From IMG/VR virus record IMGVR_UViG_3300035676_000001: DNA of 64,000 bases; one strand, given 5' to 3'. How positions within the stretch are numbered: the stretch's first letter is position 1; each line of letters begins with the position of its first letter. Source of the DNA: a virus (lineage: Duplodnaviria; Caudoviricetes). The notes under the pieces are model-generated. The model worked only from the letters and a program-made list of their open reading frames with translations, had not been told where the DNA came from and made no database searches. Shown here in pieces: positions 2,986 to 48,359 of the stretch. Both the position numbers and the translations under genes were made by a program.

Positions 2986-4419
2986 TCAGTCAAATCTAGA
3001 ATGCATTGCGTCTTGTGCTCTTTGAGCAGAAGCACGACGAGCAGCTACTTTTTGAGCAGGAGAGTGAGGACCACCATACTCACCAGCAGCAGGTGGCTTC
3101 TTACCTGGTTCCTTTTTCTGCTGACCCTTTGGAGTTCCTTGCATTTTACGCATAGAACCCTTTACAATCTCAAGTGCTTTATCTCTAGGAGGTCTTGGAG
3201 TTCCTGCTACCTTCTCTTCCTTTCTTCTCTCATCAAGAACTTCACCTTCTGGTTCATAGTCCATCTTGAGACCCATTGCTCTCAACTTATTCTTAACAAG
3301 ATTAACTTTCGTTGGAATTGCTCTGGGGTCTTCTTCACCACCTTCGCTCTTCTTGAGTTTTGGTTTTTCATCCATACCACAATCTGCTTCTTCCTTATGA
3401 ACTGGAAGTCCTTCATGCTTAGTCTTTGCAAATTTCTTTGCTTCTTTCTTACTCATTCCTTCTGCTGCTTTTGCAACTTCAGGAGATGCTGGTTTTGCTC
3501 CTTTTTTAGCAGCATAAACCATTCCCATAAACTTTTGTTGAGCCTGACTTACTGCCTTCTCAGTAATCATTTCACCTTCTAGTTCGTGATGGGCAACCAG
3601 ACCCTTTCCTTGAGCAGGTGAAATTACAACCTTATTCTTACCCTTCATCACATCAATCTTCTTTCCATTCGCATCAGGATTGTCCGATTCACCTTCGTGA
3701 ATAAACTCTTCCTTACGAGTCGCAATTGCCGAACCACGAACATCTCTGCGATGCTGCAGATACTTATCAGTCTTGTTTACTTTACCATCATTATTAACAT
3801 CAGCATCTTCCTTACCAACTGGGTCTAATTTCTCACCACGCTTTGCTCTCGCAGTCTGCTCACCTTTGGTTCTCTCACCTTCATAAGGTTCGCCATATCC
3901 AGTCATCTCAACTTCTTTAATATTTGGATTTGCACGAAGTTCAGAAATCTTTTGACGGTCAGCCATTCTTACATAAGAACGACCATCTTTACCAGTCACT
4001 CTTACCTTATATTTTCTGTGCTCAGCAGTCTCCATCTTCTCCATATAGGTCAGACGAATTGGTTCTTCTTCTTTCTGAACCCCTTCTACAAATACTTTAT
4101 AAAGTGCATTTGCAACACTAGTAGATGCAAACTCTTGAATGTTAAAGTCTTCTGCTTGCATACCACCTTTACCAAAAAGTTTTGCTTTTACCATAGCCTT
4201 TTCTTGCTGAGGCATATTACTGTTGTTCATATACTGAGAATATGCTTGCTGAAGAGATAGTTCCTCTCTTCTAGCACGATAGCGAATATCATAAATCGCT
4301 TGCTTTACTCTCTTCTCTGGAGACTTTCCACCAGCTTCCTTCTTATCTCCGCCAGCAGGAGCTGCGGCAGCAGGAGCGTGTTTTCTTGCTGGAAGCTCTT
4401 CAGCAATATGTTTTTTCAT
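2986..4419 (-). CDS. Modular basic late protein, putative head-internal polyprotein
   Basis: Modules separated by (I/L/V)xE sites; ATAAATA upstream at 4453-4459. Confidence 0.75.
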   Translation of the reverse strand: MKKHIAEELPARKHAPAAAAPAGGDKKEAGGKSPEKRVKQAIYDIRYRARREELSLQQAYSQYMNNSNMPQQEKAMVKAKLFGKGGMQAEDFNIQEFASTSVANALYKVFVEGVQKEEEPIRLTYMEKMETAEHRKYKVRVTGKDGRSYVRMADRQKISELRANPNIKEVEMTGYGEPYEGERTKGEQTARAKRGEKLDPVGKEDADVNNDGKVNKTDKYLQHRRDVRGSAIATRKEEFIHEGESDNPDANGKKIDVMKGKNKVVISPAQGKGLVAHHELEGEMITEKAVSQAQQKFMGMVYAAKKGAKPASPEVAKAAEGMSKKEAKKFAKTKHEGLPVHKEEADCGMDEKPKLKKSEGGEEDPRAIPTKVNLVKNKLRAMGLKMDYEPEGEVLDERRKEEKVAGTPRPPRDKALEIVKGSMRKMQGTPKGQQKKEPGKKPPAAGEYGGPHSPAQKVAARRASAQRAQDAMHSRFD

Positions 4420-4429
4420 GAGAAAACTT

Positions 4430-5731
4430 TTACTTCTTATCTTTTCTATACTTATTTATGAAATTAAGACCGTATGCTATTCCACCTGGTTGCAGATTCT
4501 CTTTACCAGTCCCGATTGCTCCTGGAGTTTGCTTTGCAGCATACTTAAAAGCACCCAAAGTTCCAGTAAGAGTATTTGGTTTTCCTGGAGACCTATACAT
4601 TCTATCCATCTTGACTTCAGTATATTCAGACAAATCTTTAATCCAAGACTTAAACATCATACCCGATTCAGTTACACAAATCAAATAGTTGGTTCCACGA
4701 CGAATGATACGACCAACCATTCCAGTGTTTAGATTTTCTACCAACTGACCAATTCTAAAAATTGATTCTGTGAGATAATTTTCACGAAGAGTTTGGAAAT
4801 CAAACTTAGGTGCAATCTCCCAAATACTCCAACCTTCTTTAATGTTCATTGAAGCACGAAGATTATCATACAATTCCATTGCTTCCTTGCGCTTCATCTC
4901 TGGAGGAAGACCCTCTCTAAACTTCCTAAAGTCTCCTTCAGCAGCGGCAAGTCTCATTCTTGATGCAGACATTCCTTCTACACCTTTTGCATCAGGGTCT
5001 CTTTCTCCAGCAGAGACTACTTCAATATTATCAAATTGATAAAGTTGCCCGTTATAATTGCCTGATAATTTTTCAAACTCTTTAACTCTATCAGACCCAC
5101 CAACAATTCTTACATTCGTATATCCATCATTATGCGCTTTCTTGAGAACATCAAAAATAGTTTTTGTATTTGCATCATTTACAATTCTTTCACTATGAGC
5201 AGGGAACATCCTTCTCATATAAGAAACTTTTGTATCTGGGTCTAATGGATTCTTTTTCTTATCCTGACTTCTTGAAGGATAGATTAAATAGTCACCCTTA
5301 TCTGCTGCAGCCGATTGTGCAGCAACATCCATCAATTGCTGATGCCCAATCGTAGGAGGATTGAAACGACCAAATGCAATTGTAAGAGTTCCCTTTGTTT
5401 TGGGAACTGGTGGTGGAGTTGCAACAGGTTGCTCTTGTGCTGCTGCCTGCTGTTCAGGAGCAGGTGCTTGCTGCTGTGCTGCTTGCTGTTGAGCAAGTGC
5501 TGGGTCTTGATATCCAGGAGAAGCAATTGTTTTTTCCTTTTCAGTTTGCGCTGGGTCCTTTTCACCAACTTTTTGACGCTTATTATAAAACTTGAGTTGA
5601 CCCCTTTCAGTTTTTGCTACAAACTCTCCTTGCCTATCATACCATCCACCGTGCCCGTCGCCAACAAGACCAAGACGCTGAGCTTGTTGAGATGCAGATG
5701 CTTCAGAGATAAACTGGAAAAAACTTTTCAT
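4430..5731 (-). CDS. Cytidylyltransferase/HxGH-family nucleotidyltransferase with capsid-targeting-like N-terminus
   Basis: FGRFNPPTIGH, VGGSDR and MSASRMR motifs; N-terminus MKSFFQFISE. Confidence 0.85.
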   Translation of the reverse strand: MKSFFQFISEASASQQAQRLGLVGDGHGGWYDRQGEFVAKTERGQLKFYNKRQKVGEKDPAQTEKEKTIASPGYQDPALAQQQAAQQQAPAPEQQAAAQEQPVATPPPVPKTKGTLTIAFGRFNPPTIGHQQLMDVAAQSAAADKGDYLIYPSRSQDKKKNPLDPDTKVSYMRRMFPAHSERIVNDANTKTIFDVLKKAHNDGYTNVRIVGGSDRVKEFEKLSGNYNGQLYQFDNIEVVSAGERDPDAKGVEGMSASRMRLAAAEGDFRKFREGLPPEMKRKEAMELYDNLRASMNIKEGWSIWEIAPKFDFQTLRENYLTESIFRIGQLVENLNTGMVGRIIRRGTNYLICVTESGMMFKSWIKDLSEYTEVKMDRMYRSPGKPNTLTGTLGAFKYAAKQTPGAIGTGKENLQPGGIAYGLNFINKYRKDKK

Positions 5732-5733
5732 TC

Positions 5734-5979
5734 TTATTTTTTAATTCTATTACAAATGTCCGACATTATTGACTTTTCGTTTGCAATAATGTAGTTAAGA
5801 CCATTCTTTCTAATCTTAATATATTTATTCTTTAACAAATCTGATTTATTGGATTGAATTTCCTTATCAAGTGCAAAGTAAAAATACTTGATAAAATCAT
5901 TGAAAACATCTTTTGGTCTTGACTTTTTGGTTGTAAAAATATCAAGAACATTATTAAGGAATGCTTGAAGGTCTTTCAT
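5734..5979 (-). CDS. Hypothetical protein
   Basis: ORF track; ATGA coupling to upstream gene. Confidence 0.7.
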   Translation of the reverse strand: MKDLQAFLNNVLDIFTTKKSRPKDVFNDFIKYFYFALDKEIQSNKSDLLKNKYIKIRKNGLNYIIANEKSIMSDICNRIKK

Positions 5980-7109
5980 ATCAAAAACATTCCAGGTTGT
6001 GCTTCCAAATAATTTCTTGGATAAAATCTGTACATTTTTCCTGCTGCAGTAGTTGAACTTGCAACTTCCATTTTATATCGTATCTGAATAATCAAATTAC
6101 TATTTCCAGATAATTTTGTTCCATCAGAATTTGAACGATAGATTTCAATTTTTGGGTCTCCCGATGCATTTATTCTAGCATTATATCTAGCGTTTGCAAG
6201 AATATCCCTAAACTGACGGTCGGCAACTCTTGTTTTGACTCTACCATCTCCAGTAAATTTAACAAGTTCGGTATTAACATTTCTAGAAAGACCGTAGATA
6301 ATGTAGTCAGCAAACTTTACTTTGGTATCAGTTCTATCTGGGGTATCTAATCCTTCGTTTAACTTTTTAGCGGCATAAGCATAAACAAGTCTTGCTGCCT
6401 TTTTAAGATATTCACCACCTCCAGTTTCTTTTGCGTTATCTCTAGAGGCATATTTTTTTGTGAATACTTCTTTATCAAAAAATTCATCAATAAAGTTCTG
6501 ATAATTATTAGCAACTGGGGAAACATCTAATCCCATTTCACTAAAGATATTCAAAAATTTATCAAATCCCTGACCAGATACTTGGTGAAATTGCTCACCA
6601 CCATCAACTTTTAATGAGTAATCAATATTCCTAAATCTTTTATCAGGATTTGTTGGAGAATTAACTTCTATCTTAACATCCGCTTTTGTTCCTTTTTGGT
6701 CTTCTGTTCCAGCAGCAGTTACTCGAATAAAATCTTCACGAGCATTGATAGAAAGACCTCTTGCTTGTGCATTAAGTCTACTATGCGAATTTACAAAGGA
6801 TACTGCGCCATTTTTTAAATCAGAAACTTTTGCCCAATTTGTTCTATCAGACAAAAAATCTTGTGCCTTTTTAGGAACGGATACAGATACGGACACTGTA
6901 TCAATTACAGCACTACCAACATCATTAACTTGCTTAACATATCCCTTCTTCATCATTTCCGTCAATACGGTATCAACATCCGAACCAGTAACTGTCGGTA
7001 GAGTCTTAGAAGATTTTGTTTTTGCTCTTTTTACAAATCTAGCGGCAACAGCAGCAGCAAAAAAAACTTCAAACAAATCACCTCTATTAGCTGATATTTT
7101 TTCCGCCAT
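5976..7109 (-). CDS. Hypothetical protein, putative PD-(D/E)XK nuclease
   Basis: NRGDLFE ... KADV ... YSLK pattern; CTAAATA late promoter at 7124-7130. Confidence 0.55.
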   Translation of the reverse strand: MAEKISANRGDLFEVFFAAAVAARFVKRAKTKSSKTLPTVTGSDVDTVLTEMMKKGYVKQVNDVGSAVIDTVSVSVSVPKKAQDFLSDRTNWAKVSDLKNGAVSFVNSHSRLNAQARGLSINAREDFIRVTAAGTEDQKGTKADVKIEVNSPTNPDKRFRNIDYSLKVDGGEQFHQVSGQGFDKFLNIFSEMGLDVSPVANNYQNFIDEFFDKEVFTKKYASRDNAKETGGGEYLKKAARLVYAYAAKKLNEGLDTPDRTDTKVKFADYIIYGLSRNVNTELVKFTGDGRVKTRVADRQFRDILANARYNARINASGDPKIEIYRSNSDGTKLSGNSNLIIQIRYKMEVASSTTAAGKMYRFYPRNYLEAQPGMFLI

Positions 7110-7130
7110 AAGACTTTTTGAAGTATTTAG

Positions 7131-7155
7131 TGCCCAAAAGAGGACTTGAACCTAT
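7131..7155 (-). pseudogene. 3' stub of a disrupted tRNA (T-arm, acceptor 3' strand, discriminator A)
   Basis: AGG-TTCAAGT-CCT-CT-TTTGGGC-A; TTTGGGC pairs with the 5' stub GCCCAAA at 7741-7747. Confidence 0.8.
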
Positions 7156-7163
7156 ATCGACAA

Positions 7164-7246
7164 TGCTCCAGAGAAGATTTGAACTTCCACGCTTTTTAAG
7201 GCGGCGGATTCTAAGTCCGCTGTGTCTACCGTTCCACCACTGGAGC
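7164..7246 (-). tRNA. trnL: tRNA-Leu(TAG)
   Basis: Acceptor GCTCCAG/CTGGAGC-A, anticodon arm GCGGA-CTTAGAA-TCCGC, long variable arm, T-loop TTCAAAT; CCA not encoded. Confidence 0.93.
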
Positions 7247-7690
7247 TAAACAATTTCTATTTGAGAATGTATTAGTTTGTGTATGACAATTAGGACATAA
7301 TAATCTTAAGTTGTCGGGTCTGTTATCATATGGTTGACCGTTAATATGGTCAACTTGTAATCTTAATGGTTTTCCATTCCAAGTAGAAGGAATGCCACAT
7401 TCAAAACAAGTATTACCTATTTCTTCTATTAATAATCTATATAGAATTTCACGCTTACAAGATTTACCTTTTAAAGAAGTATATTCTAAAAGTGTTTTCC
7501 ATTTATTATATCCACCATATTGCCTAATTTTATTAGTATAATCTGGTTTGTAATCGGGAATCCATTTTTTATATCTTGCTCGTAAAGTATCTGGTTTACA
7601 ATTTAATTCTAAACATAATTGAGTTGGTGATACTCCAGACAATAAAGATTCTATTATGTATTCTTTTTTGTCGTCAAGGTCTTTTCTCAT
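7226..7690 (-). CDS. HNH homing endonuclease (154 aa)
   Basis: CFEC...LQVDHING...DN...NLRLLCPNCH; start re-called at 7690 just downstream of a late promoter; stop lies inside tRNA-Leu. Confidence 0.88.
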   Translation of the reverse strand: MRKDLDDKKEYIIESLLSGVSPTQLCLELNCKPDTLRARYKKWIPDYKPDYTNKIRQYGGYNKWKTLLEYTSLKGKSCKREILYRLLIEEIGNTCFECGIPSTWNGKPLRLQVDHINGQPYDNRPDNLRLLCPNCHTQTNTFSNRNCLAPVVER

Positions 7691-7734
7691 AATTGGTAGA
7701 CACGCTGTATTATTTATACAAAATACTACTAATT
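7691..7734 (-). promoter_or_regulatory. Late promoter TATAAATA (7711-7718) in loop of hairpin abutting HNH start codon
   Basis: AATTAGTAG ... CTACCAATT arms (8/9 paired) directly before ATG. Confidence 0.7.
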
Positions 7735-7747
7735 TTACCATTTGGGC
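7726..7747 (-). pseudogene. 5' stub of disrupted Leu-type tRNA (acceptor 5' strand, decayed D-arm)
   Basis: GCCCAAA-TG-GTAAAATTAGTAG begins 4 nt after tRNA-Ala and resembles a Leu-type tRNA 5' end. Confidence 0.72.
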
Positions 7748-7751
7748 AAAG

Positions 7752-7824
7752 TGGAGAATAGCGGACTCGAACCGCTGACATCCTGCTTGCAAAGCAGGCG
7801 CTCTACCAACTGAGCTAATTCCCC
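7752..7824 (-). tRNA. trnA: tRNA-Ala(TGC)
   Basis: GGGGAATTAGCTCAGTTGGTAGAGCGCCTGCTTTGCAAGCAGGATGTCAGCGGTTCGAGTCCGCTATTCTCCA canonical cloverleaf. Confidence 0.97.
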
Positions 7825-7847
7825 GAAAACCCCGGAGGGTTATTTGT

Positions 7848-8024
7848 TCATTCTACTGCAGAACCAATCTTTTCGTCAAGGTCTGCAATTACATTGCGAA
7901 TATCAGCAACACGAGGAGGAACACTCAATTCATCATAAGTGTATCCTTTTTGTGCATCAAATAGAACTTGACGAACTGCTGCTGCAGCACGAATATCGAT
8001 TTTTACAGATACAGATTTAGCCAT
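7848..8024 (-). CDS. 58-aa hypothetical protein (not in ORF track)
   Basis: MAKSVSVKIDIRAAAAVRQVLFDAQKGYTYDELSVPPRVADIRNVIADLDEKIGSAVE; TGATG coupling to mazG. Confidence 0.75.
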   Translation of the reverse strand: MAKSVSVKIDIRAAAAVRQVLFDAQKGYTYDELSVPPRVADIRNVIADLDEKIGSAVE

Positions 8025-8434
8025 CAGATGTCTCCTTCTTCACGATTTTCACTATAATAAACATCAAAGAAACCGTCAGGATAACGCTTCATCAGTTTAT
8101 CAATATTAGTCTGAACAACCTCATCAAAGGAAACTTCCAGAGCAATACAAGCTTGTGCAATATACCACAGAGTATCACCAAGTTCTTTAATCAGGTGAGT
8201 GCGGGTTTCTTCATTCCAGGACTTACCCTGAAAAACCATCTTCTTCACAATCTCCATAAACTCACCACCTTCGGCATTGATACCAACGGCAGCAGTCAGA
8301 AGACGCTCAATATTAGCACCCTTCTCATCCAACTGAACCATACGGTCAGAGAGAGCGAGAAAATCTTTGGATGCGTCAGAAGTGACGGCATCTACAAAGT
8401 TTTGGTATTTATCAAAATCAACTCGTTGCGTCAT
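8024..8434 (-). CDS. mazG: MazG-like nucleoside triphosphate pyrophosphohydrolase
   Basis: EGGEFMEIVKK...ELGD.LWY motif. Confidence 0.9.
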   Translation of the reverse strand: MTQRVDFDKYQNFVDAVTSDASKDFLALSDRMVQLDEKGANIERLLTAAVGINAEGGEFMEIVKKMVFQGKSWNEETRTHLIKELGDTLWYIAQACIALEVSFDEVVQTNIDKLMKRYPDGFFDVYYSENREEGDI

Positions 8435-9810: not shown

Positions 9811-10388
9811 TACTTATAATGCAAATAGGCACTCATAATATACTTTGGACCACTGATAGGAGGTTCCCCCTTATGAGGAAACATCCAGAGTGGGGGAAAC
9901 ATAATTAAGGTTCCCTGTTTTGGTTGAATTTGAATGTCCTTAAAAATAGTTTGACCACCACTCTCAACATCATTCAAATACCACATAAAAGACAAATATC
10001 TACGGGCGGTCCCATAGTCTACCACATCTACATGGGTATCAAACTGATCTACACCATTTGGTTCGTATTTTTTAATACGAAATTGTTCTAGAGCGTGTTC
10101 TTCTGGAAATACACGCTTATCTACAAACTCATAATACTTATCACGATATTCAAAAATATTTTTAATAATATGATTATGAACTTGATTAACTTCTGGTGTC
10201 AACTCACGATTTTCTGTGAAATTAAACTGAGTAAAGTTAGGTTTTCCGTCATTATCGTGACGCTCTTGTTTATCAGGAACCTGGTCAAATAGACTAATTA
10301 GAAAGTTGCATATATCAGGTTCAAGAGCATTCTCGTAGATATGAATGAAATCTTGAAGTTCATCCATAAGAGAATTCGCCTTTAGCAA
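9810..10388 (-). CDS. 2OG-Fe(II) oxygenase (P4H-like)
   Basis: HVD...[11 protein letters not shown]...HKG...KY facial triad pattern. Confidence 0.9.
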
Positions 10389-14672: not shown

Positions 14673-14816
14673 TTATCTTTTACGCTTAAATGCACAAACT
14701 TTCTTTTCAGGAGCCATAGCATATTTCACAGTTTTACCATAACAATTTTCTTTTGTTGGTAAAGGAGGATTTCCAAAATCTCCTACCTTTTCCATAAACT
14801 GCTGAAAAGTTTTCAT
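14673..14816 (-). CDS. 47-aa late microprotein with capsid-targeting-like N-terminus (not in ORF track)
   Basis: MKTFQQFMEKVGDFGNPPLPTKENCYGKTVKYAMAPEKKVCAFKRKR; CTAAATA at 14837-14843. Confidence 0.7.
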   Translation of the reverse strand: MKTFQQFMEKVGDFGNPPLPTKENCYGKTVKYAMAPEKKVCAFKRKR

Positions 14817-14839
14817 CGCCCAGTTAAGTTTTCTTTTAT

Positions 14840-15274
14840 TTAGAGATAGTCCTTACGAGTATGATGCTCTGGTACTATTTTCCCAAGTACGATCCGTAAA
14901 AGTCCGTCTTCAAATGTGACTTCGCGGACTTCTGTGTCGTCGGATAAAGTCCACGCTCGTTTAAAACTTCTGCTAGCCACTCCCTTGTGGATAAACGTCC
15001 TATCCGATTCGGCATCTGCTTTTTGTCCTTCGACAAAAAGCTTTCCATATTCCGTGAAAACATTTACCTCTCCTTTCTTGAATCCTGCTAATGCGAGTTC
15101 CAAATGGGATTCGACATTATTTATTTGAATCAGGTTATAAGGAGGATAGTTCGTTGTAGTTTCGTGAAGATTAAAAAGACGATCAAAGTATTCATCCATT
15201 CCAATGCTATTGCGGGTGATTCGTTCCATCAAAGCAGGAAGATCCGCAGCAGTATACCTTGTAAGGTTAGTCAT
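14840..15274 (-). CDS. hsp20: Small heat shock protein (Hsp20/IbpA-like)
   Basis: YPPYNL, LALAGF, HKGVASRSFKRAWTL, FEDGLL motifs. Confidence 0.95.
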   Translation of the reverse strand: MTNLTRYTAADLPALMERITRNSIGMDEYFDRLFNLHETTTNYPPYNLIQINNVESHLELALAGFKKGEVNVFTEYGKLFVEGQKADAESDRTFIHKGVASRSFKRAWTLSDDTEVREVTFEDGLLRIVLGKIVPEHHTRKDYL

Positions 15275-30975: not shown

Positions 30976-31007
30976 TATTGATAATAAAAAAGAGGCATTC
31001 CTGCCTC
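30976..31007 (-). terminator. Terminator hairpin upstream of uvsW
   Basis: GAGGCA/TGCCTC stem with U-run on minus strand. Confidence 0.65.
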
Positions 31008-31728
31008 AATTTGCCAATTTTATCCCAGATATTCCGAATGATGGTCCTTCCCCAGGAGTGAATTTTTTCTTGTTTGATGATGAACCAACATTTGGAAGTG
31101 AGCTGCTACCTCCAGGTACTTTCGCAGTTTGATATCCAGTTCTTTGATTAATTGGACTCATTCCCGCTCTAGAGTAAATAGCACCTCTTTTGGCAGCACC
31201 TTCTGCATCACTTCTTGCTCTTTGTCCAGATGCTGCAATATTTGAGGGTTTATTTACTACAATATCACCTTGTTTTGCTCCAGCATCAATTGCTTTCTGC
31301 TTCACGCCCTTAATTGCTGATAAGAATGCTCTGGCTTTTTGTGATGGGGATAGTTTGGACTTTGCCTTTCCTAAGGTTACATCGTGGACTGCACCCTTTA
31401 TACCTTGTAATTGTTGTTTTAATCCTTTTACAGTTGAACGTACATTTTTTTCACCCTCTTTATACGCATTTTTAGCCACATTAGCGGCAAATGCTGATGG
31501 ACTTGAGTGAGTTCTAATATATGTTGGCACATCAGGTCCATTCTTCATTTTCCAATCGGTTGCAACCTTTGGATTTTGTACTGGTCCTCTTCCTCTAAAT
31601 CCTGCAATTGCCACATCTTTTCTCGCAGCACCTTCAGTTCCCGGAATGGGCATTGTTCCAGATTTGCGCGATGCTGATATTTGACGTAGTTCTCTTGCTT
31701 CTTCTAAGAATTCTTTGAAAGTTTTCAT
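31006..31728 (-). CDS. Basic late protein, putative capsid internal protein
   Basis: MKTFKEFLEE|A N-terminus; K/R/A/G-rich; CTAAATA at 31744-31750. Confidence 0.75.
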   Translation of the reverse strand: MKTFKEFLEEARELRQISASRKSGTMPIPGTEGAARKDVAIAGFRGRGPVQNPKVATDWKMKNGPDVPTYIRTHSSPSAFAANVAKNAYKEGEKNVRSTVKGLKQQLQGIKGAVHDVTLGKAKSKLSPSQKARAFLSAIKGVKQKAIDAGAKQGDIVVNKPSNIAASGQRARSDAEGAAKRGAIYSRAGMSPINQRTGYQTAKVPGGSSSLPNVGSSSNKKKFTPGEGPSFGISGIKLAN

Positions 31729-31746
31729 TCAACTTTTTATTTTTAT

Positions 31747-32178
31747 TTAGTTAAATCCTGATTGGAAACGATGCCATTCAATTGCATTCTTAATTTGATA
31801 TGTTCTGTTGGAAATTGTTTTAATGACTTCTTCAAGAAACTTGAGCATAATATCGTAGTATCTGATTTTAAGTTCTACTTTTGATAGTTTCTCATCGGCA
31901 GACATATATCTTTCAATAGCATCCTTTTCTCTTACCTTATAGGGAAATGGTTCTTCAGCATAAACTTCTAATGGTGCCTTTCCAGTGTAATAATTATAAC
32001 GCTCCAAACGAATCCGATTATGCATCTCTCTTGCTTTTTCACGAAGAAGAGTAATCGTATTATAGATGGTATAATATTTTGAATGAAGTTGTGGAATTTT
32101 TAAAGATTCATCGTGTAAGTTGTCAGGATCAATAACAGAATCTCTCTGCCACATTTCCTGAATTTCATCAAGATTCAT
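31747..32178 (-). CDS. uvsY: Recombination mediator UvsY
   Basis: IPQLHSKY...YYTGKA...NAIEW.RF. Confidence 0.9.
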   Translation of the reverse strand: MNLDEIQEMWQRDSVIDPDNLHDESLKIPQLHSKYYTIYNTITLLREKAREMHNRIRLERYNYYTGKAPLEVYAEEPFPYKVREKDAIERYMSADEKLSKVELKIRYYDIMLKFLEEVIKTISNRTYQIKNAIEWHRFQSGFN

Positions 32179-32810: not shown

Positions 32811-34211
32811 TCACATAAGATTAGTAACCTTGACTCTTCTGTAGTAAACGTTAGAGTTGGTTGAGATGATACCAGGATCGCTGGTTGTAGCACCCTTAGC
32901 GAATGGGTTGGCGACCAGACCATATCTGGTCTTAAAGCCAATCTTAGGCTGGAAGGTTTGCTCACCAACGGCACGAACCATCTGGAGGGGAACGTATGGG
33001 CAGTAGAAGAGACCTGCATCATAAGGATTAGCACCCTTATATCCAACAACGTAGTACTGGTTAGCAGCAACGTTTGCCGAATATGGGTCGATGTAGACTC
33101 TAAACTTGCCTTGGAGAACACCAGCGAAGGTGTTACCAGTGTCGTCAACGTTCAGGTTAGCGTTGAGTGCAGGGGTGTAATCGAGAACACCAGCCATTGC
33201 AAGTGCTGAAGCAACGTCAGCAGAGCAAACGATGGTGTTGCCCTTTCCTCTACGAGTTTGCTGTGCAATTGCGTTTGCATCGCGCTCGATTTGGAAGATA
33301 AGACCCTTGAACTTCTCAACTGACCAACGACCGTTGGAGTCAACGTCGAGGTCAAAAGTACCAGCGGTAGCAGTGTTTGTCTGAGCACCAGGAACAGCAC
33401 TCTTATAGATGGTACGGATAACTTCGCGGTTGATTTCAGCGAGGATCTCGGTGCTGAGGATGTTAGCAAGCTCAGCTTCAGCGTTCAGACCGTGGATTGC
33501 CTTGAGGTCTTGAGCGAGTTCTAATGAGTACTCAGCTTTCAGAGCTCTTGACTTAGCGGTAACGGTAACCTTTTCAATCGAGAATGCCATCTCGTTGAAG
33601 TAGTTGGTGTTGCCGTCGCCAAGTGCTTCAGCATTACCAGTGGTCATCCCTTCGCCAACGTTGTACTGGTTAGCACCAGTTGCAGCGTTGGTGGTTTGAT
33701 CGGTTGGGCTGAGGATTGAAGGATTGGTTCCACCCTGAGCGGTAGTACCAAGACCAACAGAACCATCGATGAAACCTGCAGTCAGGTTACGGCTGTTGTT
33801 CTGACCAGAGAATGCAGAATCTACTTCGTTGTAGAAGGTTTCTGCACCAGACTGGTTGGTGTAACGTGAACGCATTGCGAAGATGAGTCCAGTAGGACCG
33901 TTCATTGGTTGAACGCCACAAATATCGTAGGCGATCAGGTTAGGCATCGAACGACGGATCAGTGAGATCAGTACGGGGTCGAAACCTGCGGTAGGTGAAG
34001 AAGCACTACCACCAAAACCACCGGTTCCAGCCGAGTTGGTTGGTGAAGCTTCGTAAAGGAATTCACGCTCTTCGCGGATTGAATTCTCTTGGTTCTCTAA
34101 CAGGATTGCGGTTACTGCTCTACGATGAGAATCTTTGATTGGATCAAGACCTTCATAGTCGAGGAGTGGTGCCCACTTCTCCTGCAGATGTTCTGCATTG
34201 AACATTTGCAT
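32811..34211 (-). CDS. gp23: Major capsid protein
   Basis: KWAPLLD, DICGVQPMNGPTGLIFAMR, SRALKAEYSLELAQDL, FQPKIGFKTRY. Confidence 0.98.
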   Translation of the reverse strand: MQMFNAEHLQEKWAPLLDYEGLDPIKDSHRRAVTAILLENQENSIREEREFLYEASPTNSAGTGGFGGSASSPTAGFDPVLISLIRRSMPNLIAYDICGVQPMNGPTGLIFAMRSRYTNQSGAETFYNEVDSAFSGQNNSRNLTAGFIDGSVGLGTTAQGGTNPSILSPTDQTTNAATGANQYNVGEGMTTGNAEALGDGNTNYFNEMAFSIEKVTVTAKSRALKAEYSLELAQDLKAIHGLNAEAELANILSTEILAEINREVIRTIYKSAVPGAQTNTATAGTFDLDVDSNGRWSVEKFKGLIFQIERDANAIAQQTRRGKGNTIVCSADVASALAMAGVLDYTPALNANLNVDDTGNTFAGVLQGKFRVYIDPYSANVAANQYYVVGYKGANPYDAGLFYCPYVPLQMVRAVGEQTFQPKIGFKTRYGLVANPFAKGATTSDPGIISTNSNVYYRRVKVTNLM

Positions 34212-34264: not shown

Positions 34265-35458
34265 TCACTTTTTAGAAACTCTTTGGAGAGTCTGAAGATA
34301 AGCACTCATTGTGCCGTTAACTGATTGACTTTGAGTATAATCAGTTGATTCAGACAGATTTTCACTAGCGTTTCTTTGAGTACCGGTATTTGTTGGGAAA
34401 TATGATTCCTTTAAAGTTACCAGTTTCTCACGATAGCTCTCTTCACTATCAAACTCAACATTTTCTGCAAGAGAAGCGAGTTTGTCCTTCTGAGAAAGTG
34501 CAAGACCCTCAGTGACTTCTGCAAAGACTACATCAGCAACTGACTCTGCTAATCTTCTATTAAGAGCAACATTTCTTTGAATTTGCTCGTTGAGTTTTTC
34601 TTCCATTTCATCAAGTTTATCTACCATGCTCTCGATGACATCATATCTATCTTCAGGGATTGTTACATAATGATCTTCAAAAAGACCCTTCATTCCTTGA
34701 AGGAATGATTCGGTCATTTCGGTCTTAAGACCGTGCTCAACTGCGAGTGCATTTTCAGAAATCCACTCGTCAGCAACATACTCAAGGTAAGCATCAACAC
34801 GGTCGGTAAGACCTTCTTTGATTGCTTCGATTTCTTCTACGAGTGTTGCCTCGTAAGAAGCCTGGAGTTGCTCTTTGATTTCAGCAACCTTAGTTTTGAT
34901 TGCTGCCTCAAAGATGGTGCGAGCCTTCTCTTGGAATTCCTCGGAGAGCTCCTCACCTGCAAGGAGAGCATTGACATCTTCTTCGATGTCAAACTCTTCC
35001 TTCATATCTTCTTCTTCATCTTCACCCTTCTCGTGACCCTTGCCTTCCTTCTTCTCACCCTTTTCTTTTTTGCCTTCCTTATGAGGAGCCTCACCAGGCT
35101 CTTCACCATCTTCCTTCTCTTCTGCTTCAGCAATCAGATCCTCTTCATCCTCCTCGGTCTCCTCTTTCATACCTTGACCAGGTGCCGAAACTGGAGTTGC
35201 TGAAGTGTGAGCAGCTTCTGCTGCTGAGGCTTTAGCATTAACTACGTTCTTGACCTGAGCAAGAGTTTTGCCAGGAGTGTTGAGTTTTGCTGAATCATCG
35301 TCTGTGCGATAATTTTCTGGAGTAGGACCACCTAAATCCTCCCAACCACCAGTTTGTCCAGGAGCAATTCCGGTGGACAACTTGTGCATTGGTTCGGCAG
35401 CTGCAGCCCCTTTGGTTACTACGTTTTCCATTTCTTGTAAATTTCTACCAACGGACAT
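34265..35458 (-). CDS. gp22: Prohead core scaffold protein
   Basis: Acidic; LSEEFQEKARTIFEAA, YLEYVADEW. Confidence 0.93.
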   Translation of the reverse strand: MSVGRNLQEMENVVTKGAAAAEPMHKLSTGIAPGQTGGWEDLGGPTPENYRTDDDSAKLNTPGKTLAQVKNVVNAKASAAEAAHTSATPVSAPGQGMKEETEEDEEDLIAEAEEKEDGEEPGEAPHKEGKKEKGEKKEGKGHEKGEDEEEDMKEEFDIEEDVNALLAGEELSEEFQEKARTIFEAAIKTKVAEIKEQLQASYEATLVEEIEAIKEGLTDRVDAYLEYVADEWISENALAVEHGLKTEMTESFLQGMKGLFEDHYVTIPEDRYDVIESMVDKLDEMEEKLNEQIQRNVALNRRLAESVADVVFAEVTEGLALSQKDKLASLAENVEFDSEESYREKLVTLKESYFPTNTGTQRNASENLSESTDYTQSQSVNGTMSAYLQTLQRVSKK

Positions 35459-35497: not shown

Positions 35498-36148
35498 TTA
35501 TAGATTTGAAAGAAATTCTTGGAACAATTGTACTTTGTTCTCTTGAAGTGTTCTTTCATCAATGAGAGTGTTAATTCTCTTTTGAGTTTGTTCGGCAAGT
35601 TTTTCACGAAGAATACCACCTTCCCAAACCCACTCTTTACCTTCCATAATTCCCTGAACAAAAGCGTCAGGAGCAGAAGGGTCGGCAACGATATCAGCAG
35701 CGGTTGCTAGCATAAAGTCTTCGCCAACAATTTTATGACCTTCGTTGGTCATTTTTAATGAACCAACACCACGAGAAGAAACGCCAAGGCAAACACCTTC
35801 ACCAATGAGAGATTTTGCAATCTTACCCATTGGAGTTTCTAGCAGTTGTGCCTTACCAATAAAATTGGTTCCCTTTTGCTCAAGAGAAACAATCTTATGA
35901 GAAACGCGGTCAAGATTGACGGTAGGACCATCAGGATGACCAAGTTCTCCAAGAGCACGACCCTTAGAAACAAAGGCTTCATTATATCTGCTTACCTCTT
36001 TTGCAAGAGTTTGCATTGGATACATTCTTCCATTACGGTTGCAAATGTCTCCTTGAAGGAAAATACCTTCAATAAACATTTTCTTATCAGCACCTTTACC
36101 TTCGGTAATAAATTCTACCTTTTGAATTTCTTCTGTGATGAGTTTCAT
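35498..36148 (-). CDS. gp21: Prohead protease
   Basis: NRNGRMYP, GELGHP, GVSSRG.GS, ADIVADPSAPDAFV. Confidence 0.96.
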   Translation of the reverse strand: MKLITEEIQKVEFITEGKGADKKMFIEGIFLQGDICNRNGRMYPMQTLAKEVSRYNEAFVSKGRALGELGHPDGPTVNLDRVSHKIVSLEQKGTNFIGKAQLLETPMGKIAKSLIGEGVCLGVSSRGVGSLKMTNEGHKIVGEDFMLATAADIVADPSAPDAFVQGIMEGKEWVWEGGILREKLAEQTQKRINTLIDERTLQENKVQLFQEFLSNL

Positions 36149-36149
36149 T

Positions 36150-38596: not shown

Positions 38597-38625
38597 TTTA
38601 TAAATTTAAACTGTTATTTTACTAT

Positions 38626-39216: not shown

Positions 39217-39235
39217 AATTGTTTAAACCTCTAAA

Positions 39236-41386: not shown

Positions 41387-41421
41387 CTTTATTCTCCGTG
41401 CTATCCAGAATTATCTAAAAG

Positions 41422-41429
41422 TATTTATA
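41422..41429 (-). promoter_or_regulatory. Late promoter TATAAATA for gp18
   Basis: Exact consensus. Confidence 0.8.
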
Positions 41430-41450
41430 AATTCCCACGACTTCACAGAA

Positions 41451-43148: not shown

Positions 43149-43153
43149 AAAAA

Positions 43154-44482
43154 TTACCTCTGTTCAATCCAAGTCATTGCACCATAAGCAACTGCATTCG
43201 TCACACCAGTATCCAAAACTGCAACTGCAAGAGTGAGAGTATCACTAATTGTTCCAATGCCGCTTCTACCAATTTGGTAAACAGTATCCTTATCTAAACG
43301 AATACCTGTACCACCACCACCTTGAATAATATATCCACTATCCAAATCAATACCCGCTGTTCCGATTCCAGTAGCAGTCCTGTTATATTGGGTAAATGCA
43401 TTTTCATCAGGCATATCAACCCAAGTTCCACCAGTCAAATCTGCATTTCGGACAAATTTATATGCCAAACTAATGGCAGTTGAATTTGAAGATGGGCTTG
43501 TTTGATACAAACTTGCTGCCTGGAAGAATGTTGGAAGAACAATACCAGTAAGTGTTGTTGGTTTCAAACGAATTGAAAGAAGTGGATAATAAGTTTGTGA
43601 TACTGGTAAAATTCTACCAGTCACTGCGGTTCCGACATTCTGTGCAATACCCAACTTATCAGTAAATCCTTCACAAATCAAAGAATTGGAACCCTGATAC
43701 AAATAATGAGGACCAGTAGAAACACCTGTCGTGTTTGTAAGTTCTAAACGAATTGGGAGAAATGGAGTTTTGCACCAAGGATAAGGAAGTCTGTTTCCTG
43801 CGTTAATTGTATGAATGGTCCTTACTTGCCCATCTATCTCAAAGTGAAATTTAATCTGCCCTGCACCATACCATTCATATTCCATAACAATCATTTGCTG
43901 TGCGGAGGGAGAAGCAGTAATACCGCTTGGTCCATTACCGTCTAACTTATCTCCATTCCATTCTGAACGAGAATATCTTTCAGTAATAATACCACTTGGA
44001 CCATTACTATTAATCAAGACGCAGGCATAGTCACCACCATCATCCTCAAAATAAAAACCATCTCGCCCATCAAATAAACCAAATCTTCTGCGGACACCAG
44101 ATTTTGGTGGTTCTAATCTGATGGCAAAAGAAATTTCTGCTGGTCTTCCCGAAATGTATCTCATCACATTTCTGGTTTGACGAATGACTTCTGAACCTGC
44201 AGAAGAAGTTACAGACATTCCAACACCACTTATAACGGAGTCCCAAACCGCAGTTCCGCCAACACTAACTCTTGTATCCCATACATCAGTCTCAATTCCA
44301 TATTGGAATGTATTGAAAAAAACAATTTCTGGAGTGGATGTCTTAAGTCTTCCTTTACCTGTTACCTCAATATTTTGTAGATAAGTTGGAAGAGGATTAA
44401 TATTGGTGACCGTTACAATACCAGTAGAACCAAATGTTCCAAATCCTATGGATGCGGGTTGGGGAAGGGGATTGTAAGACAT
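43154..44482 (-). CDS. Hypothetical virion protein (beta-sandwich-like)
   Basis: ORF track; G/T-rich; inserted between terminase genes. Confidence 0.75.
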   Translation of the reverse strand: MSYNPLPQPASIGFGTFGSTGIVTVTNINPLPTYLQNIEVTGKGRLKTSTPEIVFFNTFQYGIETDVWDTRVSVGGTAVWDSVISGVGMSVTSSAGSEVIRQTRNVMRYISGRPAEISFAIRLEPPKSGVRRRFGLFDGRDGFYFEDDGGDYACVLINSNGPSGIITERYSRSEWNGDKLDGNGPSGITASPSAQQMIVMEYEWYGAGQIKFHFEIDGQVRTIHTINAGNRLPYPWCKTPFLPIRLELTNTTGVSTGPHYLYQGSNSLICEGFTDKLGIAQNVGTAVTGRILPVSQTYYPLLSIRLKPTTLTGIVLPTFFQAASLYQTSPSSNSTAISLAYKFVRNADLTGGTWVDMPDENAFTQYNRTATGIGTAGIDLDSGYIIQGGGGTGIRLDKDTVYQIGRSGIGTISDTLTLAVAVLDTGVTNAVAYGAMTWIEQR

Positions 44483-44871
44483 TATACTAAGAACCAGTTA
44501 GAACCGTTGTAAAAATAAGTAAAACTTTGATGATTGATTTTCATCACAACTGAAGTATCGTTTTCAACACTCGCACCAATACCAGCACGAACCGTTACAT
44601 TATATGTAGATATCTTATTGCCTTCATCTTTTACAGTAATTTTTTTACCTGTTAATGGAGACGCTGGAAGGTCTATCAAAACAGGAACATTTGCATTTAT
44701 TGCGATATAATCATCAGAAGTTGTTGCTTGATAGTATGTTGTGACTCCAGAAATTGTTACACAACTTGTAAATCCAACACATGCCCATTGGACACCATTC
44801 CATTTATAATAACGACCTGCGGTATTATAAATTTGATTTAGTAGTGGAGAGTTTGGAAAATTAATCGCCAT
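44482..44871 (-). CDS. Hypothetical virion/fibre-associated protein
   Basis: MAINFPNSP...Y.WNG..W N-terminal motif of cyanophage structural proteins. Confidence 0.75.
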   Translation of the reverse strand: MAINFPNSPLLNQIYNTAGRYYKWNGVQWACVGFTSCVTISGVTTYYQATTSDDYIAINANVPVLIDLPASPLTGKKITVKDEGNKISTYNVTVRAGIGASVENDTSVVMKINHQSFTYFYNGSNWFLV

Positions 44872-44875
44872 AGTT

Positions 44876-46762
44876 CTAAACCTGCTGAATGGTTACAATC
44901 ACTGAAGGAATTCCTGGAATATTTACTGGTATATCTCCACCAGGAGAAGAAATTGATGTGATTGGTTCAGTTCTAGTGAGTTGAACTTGAGTATCATCTA
45001 CCATCCACATATACTCTACATAATCTCCAGCATTCATATCAACAATAAAATTCCAAGCAGCAACTGTTTCGGCATTTGTTCCCTGAACAGCAACAACACT
45101 GGTTGTGTCTGGGATATTAATTCCATTTTTTCTCAACCAAATCCATATATGTCCAGTAGCACCTGAAGGTTTATCTAACTGAACTGAAAACTGTGTATTA
45201 TAAACTCCACCATAAGTAGAAGTAATCCTACTTTGATTTGCTACACTAAATCCACTTTCATTAGCAATGCTACGCAAAAGCATCGGAGTTGATACACCAA
45301 TTCCAGAGCAAGATTGTGATATTGTATCATAATAAGAACCATAGTATCTTGTAGCGGTTCCTAAACCAGTTGCATTGATTGTAACTGTTCCAATTCCATT
45401 CGTAGGAGAAATTGTAATTCCTGTTCCTGCAATAATTTGATTAACAATTGTAGGTTTATTCAGAATGGATGAGATACCAGTAGTTGCATTCCAGTCACTA
45501 TTGACTTGTGCTGCAGGAATTACTGGTTTGTTTAGAATAGATGTAACTCCAGTTACTGCATCCCAATTTGCATTTAATTGGGTAAAACTACCAGTACTAC
45601 CAATACCTGTTGCGTTAATAGTAATGCGTCCAGTATTTGCTGATATATCAATACCAGTTCCTGCAATCAGGTAAGTAACAATACCACTTAATGGGGCACC
45701 ATTACCATAATAAGAAATCGCAGTTACAACTCCGACACTCATTCCAAGATTTGAAGTATTTCCATATCCCAGAGTAACATCTAGGTTTTGTGGAAGATTT
45801 GCTCCTCCTCCACCACCACCTTCGCCGCCGCCACACCCGGGTGCAAATTCTACCCATTGTGTGCTATCACCATCTGGATAATAAAGATATGGTTTACCTA
45901 CTGTGCTATCCCACCAAAGTGGATAAATTATTGGGTCTACTGGAGGTGCATCACCAATAGTTAATCCAATTCCAGTAATAGTTACAATACCGACATGAGA
46001 AGAAACAAAAATATTTGGACCAGCATCGATGTAAGTTACAATACCACTTATGGTTGAACCATCATTTGAACCTATCCACTTATTAGTTATTTCATCATAT
46101 TGTAGAAAGTAATTATCAGTCTTCGCACTATCTCTATCAACATCATCCAAAAACTCAAGACGAGTTTCACCACCTCCACCTAATGTGGAAAGTTGTTGTT
46201 GAATACGATTAAGGAAAAGTTTATAATGCTTTTGAAGATCATCAAGAGTTGCAAAGTTTTGATCCAAAGGAGTTAATGGATCATTTTGCATCTTTACATT
46301 TGAAGGTTCCGAAAGAAGTCCTAATGACTTTTCAATCAGGTCTTCTTTAGGTTCATTAAGATCTTCTAATTCTTCTTTATGATCCTCAAGAACCTCAAGA
46401 ACTTCATCCAAAGAATTTTCAATTACATCATCAATAATTTGTTCTTGTTCTTTGGCTGTCTCAGAATATAACCATTTTTCAAATGCCTTAACTGTTTTTT
46501 CTTCTTGTACTTTTTTCTTTTTAGTTTCCTTTTTTAAATTAACAACTTCTTCAAAAACAGAATCAAGAGTGATATCACCAATTAAAGATTCTTCTTTCTT
46601 TTTTTCTTCTACTTTTTTTTCTTTTTCTTTTTTCTTAAGCGTAGCAAATTCTTCAAAAAGAGAATCCAATCCCAAGTCACCGACTACAGAATCAAATTCT
46701 TCTTTTTTCTTTTTCTTATCTTCTGCTAATAATTTAAAAAAATCAGATAATTCAGAGGACAT
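44876..46762 (-). CDS. Coiled-coil plus fibre-like protein
   Basis: K/E-rich N-terminus; QVNSDWNAT...ILNKP repeats; C1q/BclA-like C-terminus. Confidence 0.72.
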   Translation of the reverse strand: MSSELSDFFKLLAEDKKKKKEEFDSVVGDLGLDSLFEEFATLKKKEKEKKVEEKKKEESLIGDITLDSVFEEVVNLKKETKKKKVQEEKTVKAFEKWLYSETAKEQEQIIDDVIENSLDEVLEVLEDHKEELEDLNEPKEDLIEKSLGLLSEPSNVKMQNDPLTPLDQNFATLDDLQKHYKLFLNRIQQQLSTLGGGGETRLEFLDDVDRDSAKTDNYFLQYDEITNKWIGSNDGSTISGIVTYIDAGPNIFVSSHVGIVTITGIGLTIGDAPPVDPIIYPLWWDSTVGKPYLYYPDGDSTQWVEFAPGCGGGEGGGGGGANLPQNLDVTLGYGNTSNLGMSVGVVTAISYYGNGAPLSGIVTYLIAGTGIDISANTGRITINATGIGSTGSFTQLNANWDAVTGVTSILNKPVIPAAQVNSDWNATTGISSILNKPTIVNQIIAGTGITISPTNGIGTVTINATGLGTATRYYGSYYDTISQSCSGIGVSTPMLLRSIANESGFSVANQSRITSTYGGVYNTQFSVQLDKPSGATGHIWIWLRKNGINIPDTTSVVAVQGTNAETVAAWNFIVDMNAGDYVEYMWMVDDTQVQLTRTEPITSISSPGGDIPVNIPGIPSVIVTIQQV

Positions 46763-46763
46763 A

Positions 46764-48359
46764 TTAACAATTCCAAGCTCTCAGAGATTTATTGATTCTT
46801 GAATTTGGATCGTTTGCAGTTTTTGCTGAAGTCAATTTCTTCTTCATACCACTCATACGAGCACAAAATGATTTTCTACGATTTGATGCCTTCGAACCCT
46901 TCTTTAATTTTGATGGGTCAGTTGTTACAGCAGTCTGTAACTTTGAACCAGGATTCTCTCTTCTATAAGATTCAACACCTTTTTTATTGAGACCACCAGA
47001 TTCTCTTTTACCTTCTTTTCTCTGCCAAGCTGCAGATGCTTCACTCATAAATTCCCCAAATGTCTTTAGGTCTGTAGAGTTTGCTAGTGGAAGTTGAATT
47101 CCTGATAATTTTCCTTTTGCCGCATTTCTTTCACCTTGAGTAGAACCTTGAGATGCAAGTTTTCTAATTTTATCTTGTCTCAATGCGTTTCTTGTATCTT
47201 GTGATGTGTGACCTACTTCAAAACTAATCTGTTCTTTTTGCATCTCACCACTATCTACATAGTCTGCTGCGGTATCAATGTAGTCTGCTGCCTTTGTAAT
47301 CTTTGATTGAACCCAAGCTTCAATACTTCCCTCACCTTTTTTTACTTTTTTCTTGAGTCTATTTGCTGCCTTAATAATAGTAGAAATTTCTGAGCGAGCC
47401 ATCGAATACTCGTGATCGTATCCTTCATTAGCAGGGTGAACTTGTGCAATATCAAACTTCATTTGATTCGTAGTTAACATAGGTGGTGTTGAATATAATG
47501 CCCAGAACTTTGGACCATACTTGCATTCAGACTGAGTTTCGTCTTTTTTGCATTTTGGGCAATATCTTACCATTCCAGTTTCTTCTTTAACGGGAACGCA
47601 ATTTGGAACCATTTTTTTACCCTTCTTTTTCATACCCTCTTCCTTATAACCATCCCAACAATCTTCTGATTTTGTGCCCCAATTAGCAGCACCAACTTTA
47701 CGACATTTGACAAGTGCTCCAGATGCATATGCACTAGGCCAAACATCATATCTTGATTTTACTTTATTGTAGCAAGCATCTTTTTTACCACTACCTTTGC
47801 CTGCTTTATCTTTTACTTCTTGGAGATCCATTTCTTCTGTTCTTACATTTGTTGGTTTTGAAGCACCAGTTTTTTCTGGTTGATTTGGGTCTAAACGATT
47901 TTTTCTTCTTCTTGCAGATTCTTCTTCGTCTTTAGAAAGTGTTCTTTTCATTTTAGAACTTCCACACTTTGGTGTAGAAGTTTGTCCAGGTTGACGAGCA
48001 CAAGGTTTACCTGCCCATTTACCTCCAAGTTGAACCCATCCTTTTTTTCCATCAGATGATTTGGATTTATTAAACCAATCGTGAAGACCTTCATCTCCAG
48101 ACTTGGTTTCTTCCTTCACATCTTTAAATTTCTTATGATGCTTTTTAGCATCTGCCTCCATTTTTTTCAAACGAGTATAATAGTCTGGAATTTCGTCTAA
48201 GTGTTGAAGAGCAATTTCTGTCGCCAACTTTTGATTCTTGGTATGTTCGTGCTCAATTGGAGCACCCATATCAAGTTGCTTTTGGATAAACGAAACTTCA
48301 AGACGATGCTTTTTAGCAATCTCTTCCACAGTTTTGTATGGTTTCAATTGCTCATTCAT
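46764..48359 (-). CDS. Modular basic late protein, putative head-internal polyprotein
   Basis: Short modules separated by xxE sites; internal LKTFGEFMSE|A; CTAAATA at 48384-48390. Confidence 0.75.
   Translation of the reverse strand: MNEQLKPYKTVEEIAKKHRLEVSFIQKQLDMGAPIEHEHTKNQKLATEIALQHLDEIPDYYTRLKKMEADAKKHHKKFKDVKEETKSGDEGLHDWFNKSKSSDGKKGWVQLGGKWAGKPCARQPGQTSTPKCGSSKMKRTLSKDEEESARRRKNRLDPNQPEKTGASKPTNVRTEEMDLQEVKDKAGKGSGKKDACYNKVKSRYDVWPSAYASGALVKCRKVGAANWGTKSEDCWDGYKEEGMKKKGKKMVPNCVPVKEETGMVRYCPKCKKDETQSECKYGPKFWALYSTPPMLTTNQMKFDIAQVHPANEGYDHEYSMARSEISTIIKAANRLKKKVKKGEGSIEAWVQSKITKAADYIDTAADYVDSGEMQKEQISFEVGHTSQDTRNALRQDKIRKLASQGSTQGERNAAKGKLSGIQLPLANSTDLKTFGEFMSEASAAWQRKEGKRESGGLNKKGVESYRRENPGSKLQTAVTTDPSKLKKGSKASNRRKSFCARMSGMKKKLTSAKTANDPNSRINKSLRAWNC

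Follow-up and report, generated by a model that had tools for sequence, protein, structure and literature searches.

A T4-type capsid-targeting tag on unrelated genes of a cyanophage suggests head-loaded cargo

Tagged genes in a T4-like cyanophage

In the 64,000-nucleotide (nt) stretch of DNA analysed here (the window; IMG/VR virus record IMGVR_UViG_3300035676_000001, Caudoviricetes), it was found that three genes start with a short peptide resembling the capsid-targeting sequence (CTS) of phage T4, and that a fourth gene carries an internal copy of it. This 64-kb window is part of a T4-like cyanomyovirus (Kyanoviridae), whose closest cultured relative is the freshwater Synechococcus phage S-SRM01, with about 81% nucleotide identity across conserved replication genes. 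The minus strand holds almost every gene of the window and all four copies of the peptide, hereafter the tag, whose consensus is M-K-(T/S)-F-x-(E/Q)-F-(I/L/M)-x-E. The four genes, A to D, and their parts are listed below (lengths in amino acids, aa; arrows mark cleavage sites, predicted ones in the window).

4430..5731, minus strand: gene A, a tagged NMNAT-like cytidylyltransferase of 433 aa (PF01467, phrog_395), orthologue of the cyanophage core gene T4-GC190
5702..5731, minus strand: tag of A, MKSFFQFISE, with a predicted cut before Ala11
5570..5701, minus strand: second N-terminal module of A, residues 11-54, ..LGLVGDGHGGWYD..G.FVAKT..G.LKF
14673..14816, minus strand: gene B, a basic microprotein of 47 aa, with the tag MKTFQQFME and then Lys
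31006..31728, minus strand: gene C, a very basic protein of 240 aa without known family, with the tag MKTFKEFLEE↓A at nt 31699-31728
46764..48359, minus strand: gene D, a mosaic of 531 aa built from small modules (DUF5661 ... DUF6321), flanked by gp16 and a fibre-like gene and related to T4-GC119
47040..47069, minus strand: internal tag of D, LKTFGEFMSE, residues 431-440, followed by Ala441
46767-47039, minus strand: DUF6321 module of D, residues 441-531, directly after the internal tag

A first-pass annotation of the window had reported four K(T/S)F-x-(E/Q)F sites, and all four were found, on the minus strand. It had written the consensus as K(T/S)F-x-(E/Q)F-x-x-E, which is correct for A, C, and D but not for B, whose Glu is at tag position 9 and not 10. 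Its statement that the payloads are unrelated was borne out: A is a PF01467 cytidylyltransferase, B and C have no family match, and D combines DUF5661 and DUF6321.

The ten N-terminal residues of T4 IPIII are enough for packaging, also of foreign proteins; residues 4 and 7 are the main determinants of targeting, and residues 8 and 10 determine processing (PMC9026906). The T4 protease gp21 cuts after Glu in L/I-x-E. Reading the T4 DNA directly, I found that IPIII and IPII start with MKTYQEFIAE↓A and IPI with MKTFKEFTS...ITE↓A; the first seven residues of C and T4 IPI are identical. The proposed match to the T4 CTS is sound, since the tag fits it at every functionally mapped position, that is, aromatic residues at 4 and 7, an aliphatic residue at 8, and Glu at 10. 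In A, B, and C, Phe4 and Phe7 stand just behind Met1-Lys2, while the copy in D is internal and lacks this arrangement. A gp21-type motif at tag positions 8-10 followed by a small residue is present in A (ISE↓A), C (LEE↓A), and D (MSE↓A); B has FME↓K at positions 7-9, which is non-canonical for gp21. A hypothetical T4 protein of 54 aa, gp61.1, encoded beside the primase gene (NC_000866 18966-19130, minus strand), also has a CTS-like start, MKTFKEFIKE.

The enrichment over shuffled sequence that the first-pass annotation had proposed to measure is strong. In 300 dinucleotide-preserving shuffles, MK[TS]F.[EQ]F starts had a mean of 0.003 (3 observed), and the full motif was found 0 times (4 observed). 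These counts exclude a chance origin. A six-frame regex scan of the window gave no additional coding copy of the tag; the single extra K[TS]F.[EQ]F match lies in a non-coding plus-strand frame. The tag codons differ synonymously while the residues are kept, which points to protein-level selection on the tag.

Head protease, scaffold, and predicted cleavage sites

The window that carries the tagged genes also encodes an S77-type prohead protease and a gp22-type scaffold core. They belong to a T4 head module consisting of the portal, a gp68-like protein, gp21, gp22, and gp23.

35498..36148, minus strand: gp21 prohead protease (S77; PF03420, E = 1.6e-36; phrog_207)
36098-36115, minus strand: own site of gp21, KVEFITE↓GKG (residues 12-17 for EFITE↓G)
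34265..35458, minus strand: gp22 scaffold (T4_CASP; PF25623, E = 3.7e-81), the presumed docking partner of the tag
32811..34211, minus strand: gp23 major capsid protein (PF07068)
34047-34064, minus strand: predicted maturation site of gp23, EREFLYE↓ASPT, residues 50-55

The gp23 site is positionally equal to GSFLTE↓AEIGG of T4 and lies at a similar distance upstream of the conserved RRxxPNLIA block. T4 gp21 too has a cleavage-type motif near its N-terminus (PMC9026906). The 67 window proteins contain six occurrences of the half-motif [EQ]F[LIM].E[AGST], while 0.25 are expected from within-protein shuffles. The six sites are the three full tags, gp23 (EFLYE↓A), gp21 (EFITE↓G), and a 477-aa protein encoded next to A (EEFIHE↓G). 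Since gp23 and gp21 have the same motif, the tag ends in what appears to be the phage's own head-protease site. The scaffold gp22 contains seven [LIM]xE↓[AGST] sites. A predicted complex of gp22 with residues 1-40 of C had a score of 0.00; the prediction was run without controls and counts neither way.

Tagged proteins in published virion proteomes

Orthologues of two of the four genes are known from virus particles. S-SM1 particles contained T4-GC190 with 25 counts and T4-GC119 with 13 counts (Sullivan et al. 2010, PMC3037559, Table S8). SSM1_190, the GC190 protein of S-SM1, bears the tag MKKFSAFLNE↓A. The GC190 orthologue of S-PM2 has no tag and was undetected in S-PM2 virions.

The virion proteome of S-CREM2 comprises 52 proteins among 219 coding sequences (CDS) (PMC10665884, Table 3). 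I scanned the whole S-CREM2 genome in six frames with the regex ^M[KR].[FYL]..[FY][ILMV].E, at every ATG, GTG, and TTG of open reading frames (ORFs) of at least 35 aa. Exactly four ORFs matched: the S-adenosylmethionine (SAM) hydrolase gp6, gp13, the APH-like kinase gp14, and the cytidylyltransferase gp154. Each of these belongs to the virion proteome (background 52/219 CDS; hypergeometric P = 0.0029). Near-variants of the tag are present in three more virion proteins, ORF136 (MQTFSMFFSE), ORF15 (MNFSEFNES), and ORF12 (...LRFASFMAE↓AAV), and on reading no near-variant was seen in the six undetected genes of the gp6-gp17 stretch. The authors of that proteome proposed encapsidation and left contamination open (PMC10665884).

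Gene A and its neighbours

In 119 close relatives of A, tag positions 1, 2, 4, 7, and 10 hardly vary, position 8 accepts I or L, and position 9 varies freely. This conservation profile is the pattern expected from T4 mutagenesis. GC190 orthologues start with MKKFSAFLNE↓A in S-SM1, MKKFSAFLTE↓A in S-RIM8, MKKFSAFLKE↓A in P-SSM3, MKSFSQFLTE in P-SSM2, MKRFLQFLSE↓A in DSL-LC02, MRFRQFIIE↓A in S-SZBM1, and MKNFSSFLTE↓A in S-CREM2. The Bellamy orthologue has MKSLFQFLNE↓A when read from an ATG upstream of its annotated start.

Residues 2-54 of A match the N-terminus of phrog_3561. A stretch resembling the second module of A follows the tag in the S-CREM2 virion proteins gp12 (Cas9-like) and gp14 (kinase), and matches to this module were found in 296 library proteins, almost all at the protein's own N-terminus. 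When the library was searched with residues 1-58 of A, mainly short fragments and cytidylyltransferases were returned, and no new payload types. The loading signal may extend into this second module, or the module may be a shared linker domain.

Two neighbours of A have tag-like or protease-site-like sequences. Directly upstream, an ORF of 81 aa (5734-5979, minus strand) starts with MKDLQAFLNN, near the start MKDLHSFLTE of the S-CREM2 virion protein gp13, except that position 10 is Asn where gp13 has Glu. This start may represent a decayed tag, or one lacking the cleavage site. On the other side, the 477-aa protein is basic (DUF3008; 2986-4419, minus strand) and has its internal protease-type site EEFIHE↓G at residue 238. 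It occupies the place of the S-SM1 virion protein GC1454; orthology of the two is not claimed, as they have only one short common block (E = 0.003).

Genes B and C

The predicted mature part of B has a pI of 9.9. Its counterpart in S-SRM01 is 93% identical, has the same start, and likewise lies just after hsp20. The predicted mature part of C is a 24-kDa protein with a pI of 10.7. Of its 20 relatives, near ones start with MKTF[KQ]EF[LI].E↓A, far ones with MQFQEEFLDE or MNFQELLDE, and the DSL-LC02 homologue has another N-terminus. As read from these proteins, the C family shows both variation and loss of the tag on one payload. Two members of the family have a tag-like end: the DSL-LC02 protein (L001:3570-3612) finishes with ..ITFNEFMSMIYE before its stop codon, and the C-terminus of the P0408 protein contains ..KTFAQFMSEC... 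In both, the beginning of a tagged gene from downstream seems to have been fused on. These two C-termini hint at tandem, merging cassettes of tagged genes.

Gene D

D and its S-SM1 relative SSM1_115 (T4-GC119) have common blocks with 42-67% identity in a shuffled order; SSM1_115 has a DUF6321 module and follows gp16, as D does. More than 8000 sequences are related to the DUF6321 module of D, with identities of 75-90%. Stand-alone DUF6321 proteins of about 100 aa start with M[KL][TSR]F.[EQ][FY][ILV].E, then AAWQRKEGK. In longer forms, which have Cys-rich or DVYPSAYA modules inserted, [IL]-D-E stands before the DUF6321 module. In marine relatives of D, the decayed tags LSFQDFQEK and LTFQQFQEK lie at other junctions. 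These module comparisons indicate that D is a mosaic whose cassettes occur elsewhere as tagged genes in their own right.

The inclusion of D among address-tagged cargo proteins, as in the first-pass annotation, is not supported, since its copy is internal and lies where a module begins that elsewhere forms a tagged gene of its own. The copy would be better read as a processing site or a fusion relic than as an address tag. Most likely, it is a gp21 processing site that would release the 91-residue C-terminal fragment, for which a pI of 10.9 is predicted. Alternatively, LKTFGEFMSE may be a functionless, uncut relic of a tagged DUF6321 gene fused to upstream modules. Stand-alone tagged DUF6321 genes are indeed very common, the marine relatives have decayed versions at other junctions, and module order is shuffled between D and the S-SM1 GC119 protein. 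However, the full cleavage consensus EFMSE↓A is kept at the site, and the longer relatives without a tag still have [IL]-D-E before the DUF6321 module, a retention that suggests selection for a cut at this junction. A pure relic, a reading that concerns D alone, is considered unlikely.

Late-promoter-like sequences and other features of the window

Three of the tagged genes are preceded by a CTAAATA box, which I take to be a variant of the T4 late box TATAAATA.

48384..48390, minus strand: CTAAATA box, 31 nt before the ATG of D
31744..31750, minus strand: CTAAATA box, 22 nt before the ATG of C
14837..14843, minus strand: CTAAATA box, 27 nt before the ATG of B

Copies of CTAAATA on the coding (minus) strand are at 48390, 38629, 32761, 31750, 14843, 7130, 2982, and 19710. 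All but one of the eight lie 20-36 nt ahead of a start codon; the portal gene gp20 and a gp3-like gene are among the genes so preceded. This placement is consistent with a role as a late-promoter box; a literature search for CTAAATA in cyanophages gave nothing usable on late promoters. The earlier claim that every tagged gene lies under or downstream of a late promoter would fit B, C, and D, with late-promoter-like boxes 22-31 nt upstream; A has no box of its own. The closest copy is two genes upstream, at 7130, and A probably rides on upstream transcription.

Further genes of the window include UvsY, UvsW, hsp20, and a gp16-like small terminase. The tRNA genes Leu(TAG) and Ala(TGC) are at 7164-7246 and 7751-7824 (minus strand); an ORF with a TTG start at 7226-7792 overlaps both and is probably no gene.

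Distribution of the tag

A narrow DNA pattern, with Thr or Ser at position 3 and Glu or Gln at position 6, was used for other genomes; it misses marine orthologues such as MKKFSAF... In S-SRM01 it gave 8 forward, 0 reverse, and 0 control matches. Three tagged genes for basic proteins form a tandem cluster there, recalling T4 ipIII-ipII. The cluster genes (L006-L008, 81.7-84.2 kb) encode 53, 276, and 338 aa; the 276- and 338-aa proteins are very basic paralogues of low complexity that start with MKTFQ[EQ]FQES↓A. By a broader pattern and direct reading, fully tagged genes number one in Syn9, one in S-SM1, and none in S-PM2. Thus, the dispersed tag family is lineage-specific.

A pattern scan of IMG/VR gave at least 124 matches in at least 120 loci. 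Among the matches listed, 123 of 124 open ORFs of at least 30 aa, almost all with an in-frame stop closely upstream, and the payloads form at least 36 clusters. These clusters include cytidylyltransferases (at least 46), a DPBB lytic transglycosylase, a GNAT, and DUF6267, and at least ten D-like DUF5661 proteins have an N-terminal tag. T4-like cyanophage genes lie on 90 of the 120 loci listed. The motif is therefore useful for mining, as had been suggested: nearly every match listed opens a real ORF, and the payloads are diverse.

Proposed mechanism and alternatives

I consider it probable that this phage uses the T4 capsid-targeting system to load tagged cargo into its head; docking, cleavage, head location, and delivery are parts of this proposal. 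Late in infection, proteins starting with M-K-x-F-x-x-F-(L/I/M)-x-E would dock via the short amphipathic tag on the gp22/gp21 scaffolding core and would be enclosed as the gp23 shell forms. Then gp21 would cut after Glu in EF(L/I/M)xE↓A, the same type of site as in gp23 and in gp21 itself, and free the mature protein within the head. D would be cut at its internal site, and perhaps elsewhere too, into basic fragments. The predicted cargo comprises the NMNAT-like cytidylyltransferase A, the 24-kDa, very basic C, and probably a basic peptide of 38 residues from B. The predicted mature parts of B and C and the D fragment are basic, as are T4 IPII and IPIII. By analogy with T4, the cargo would reside in the head and be ejected into the host with the DNA. 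The capsid-loading claim of the first-pass annotation gains from the gp21 and gp22 genes, from the orthologues of A and D in S-SM1 virions, and from the four of four tagged ORFs in the S-CREM2 particle; D's copy is the part that needs correction.

Several points weigh against this proposal. The Glu9-Lys pair of B departs from the canonical L/I-x-E↓A site. Although D lacks an N-terminal tag, its S-SM1 relative is present in virions; tags are thus not the sole route into the particle, and many S-CREM2 virion proteins have no tag. The tagged Syn9 orthologue was undetected in Syn9 virions, where, as for S-PM2, a lower sensitivity of the older study is assumed. Although the S-CREM2 regex was set ahead of the scan, the window and some orthologues were already known by then. 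The S-CREM2 authors warn that abundant enzymes might co-purify with particles (PMC10665884), whole-virion mass spectrometry does not separate head from tail, and the proteome evidence comes from the related phages S-SM1 and S-CREM2 and not from the phage of the window.

Three other explanations of the tag were weighed. It may be a mere propeptide removed by the protease, keeping an enzyme inactive or marking it for processing, or a general virion-association signal, while incorporation occurs via other parts, such as the second module of A, or into the tail or baseplate and not the head. The best-supported half of the motif is indeed the cleavage half, EF[LIM]xE↓A, common to gp23 and gp21; a further module behind the tag is common to A and the S-CREM2 proteins gp12 and gp14; D-type proteins reach virions without an N-terminal tag; and whole-virion proteomics gives no localisation. 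However, the ten T4 residues alone package foreign proteins, with residues 4 and 7 carrying the targeting (PMC9026906), and here positions 4 and 7 are near-invariant though unneeded for a cut at L/I-x-E. Moreover, C, B, and the S-CREM2 SAM hydrolase keep the tag without the second module. I regard this explanation as distinctly unlikely.

It is more improbable still that the N-terminus serves a role outside the virion, in translation initiation or mRNA structure, as a degron, or as an oligomerisation helix, with a convergent likeness to T4. Codons at the very start of these putative late transcripts are AT-rich, and the particle evidence covers relatives of A and D rather than B and C, as such a role would allow. 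On the other hand, the codons differ synonymously under kept residues, the internal copy in D, where Leu replaces Met, is conserved, the motif has at its end the protease site of gp23 and gp21, and all tagged S-CREM2 ORFs are virion proteins. As for a chance or compositional coincidence of four sites, only the shortness of the motif speaks for it, and its probability is practically nil. It was rejected on the shuffles (0.003 against 3 and 0 against 4) and on the S-SRM01 counts (8 forward, none in reverse or control), and the tag is conserved across hundreds of homologues.

Implications

Loading of tagged cargo, the explanation preferred here, might extend beyond one phage. Tentatively, and with somewhat less than even confidence, I suggest that Kyanoviridae have a general, programmable cargo loading, in which any tagged gene, sometimes together with the GDGHG-W module behind the tag, yields a protein that is packed into the head and delivered ready-made at infection, and which also includes D-type polyproteins. 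If so, these phages would have an exchangeable arsenal of first-minute effectors (an NMNAT-like enzyme, SAM hydrolase, kinase, Cas9-like nuclease, GNAT, and lytic transglycosylase), and D-type mosaics would be polyproteins chopped by the head protease into basic, DNA-associated peptides. Gain and loss of tags and fusion of cassettes would then be a main route of counter-defence evolution in these abundant aquatic viruses. T4-like cyanophages are among the most abundant viruses of oceans and lakes.

Several proteomic papers have reported enzymes (cytidylyltransferase/NMNAT, kinases, SAM hydrolase) in cyanophage particles, without a mechanism and with contamination possible. A tag combined with a head-protease site offers a concrete mechanism for these particle enzymes and argues for genuine cargo. 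It would mark B, C, and D as probable packaged cargo beside A, and it provides a simple sequence rule for predicting packaged effectors in genomes and metagenomes. That coliphage T4 and cyanophages have kept one tag sequence suggests that the docking surface of the scaffold core is conserved as well, and T4 packaging technology could, for the same reason, be transferred to cyanophages.

Comparison with known systems

The mechanism proposed for the cyanophages is the known capsid targeting of T4 and is not new in kind. For T-even phages, the concept has been established since the 1990s, and their diverse internal proteins share only the CTS (PMC3012670). No paper on the tag in cyanophages was found, which is a weak absence since the search reached few subscription journals. 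The likeness to the T4 CTS proteins lies in a near-identical N-terminal tag of ten residues (MKTYQEFIAE or MKTFKEF.. in T4, MKTFKEFLEE here), the L/I-x-E↓A end, unrelated and often basic payloads, the co-encoded gp21 and gp22, and the putative late-type promoters of some tagged genes. Unlike T4, a member of the Straboviridae, the phage described here belongs to the Kyanoviridae and has another host, an NMNAT-like nucleotidyltransferase payload, and one internal copy; payloads in its relatives are a SAM hydrolase, a kinase, a Cas9-like nuclease, GNAT, and a DPBB lytic transglycosylase. For the phage described here, packaging, cleavage, and injection are predictions.

The T4 ADP-ribosyltransferase Alt is comparable to A as proposed here: it is a non-structural enzyme that gp21 trims after packing into the head, and it enters the host along with the DNA and acts there immediately. 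The difference is that A is a nucleotidyltransferase of the PF01467 superfamily, for which a NAD-related activity has been suggested in the cyanophage literature.

Loading in the Dar system of phage P1 (DarA/Hdf) depends on dedicated partner proteins and on N-terminal regions that are not known to resemble the tag in sequence. Its anti-restriction proteins are packaged in the head during assembly and shield the incoming DNA (PMC9024508, PMC12810830).

The giant phages phiKZ, 201phi2-1, and SPN3US have many head-internal proteins that are cut after Glu, at a very short motif, by a gp21-related protease. Their motif is S/A-x-E, and no common N-terminal address tag of ten residues has been described for them. 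The module chain of D is closer in spirit to the multiply cut proteins of these giant phages than to the internal proteins of T4.

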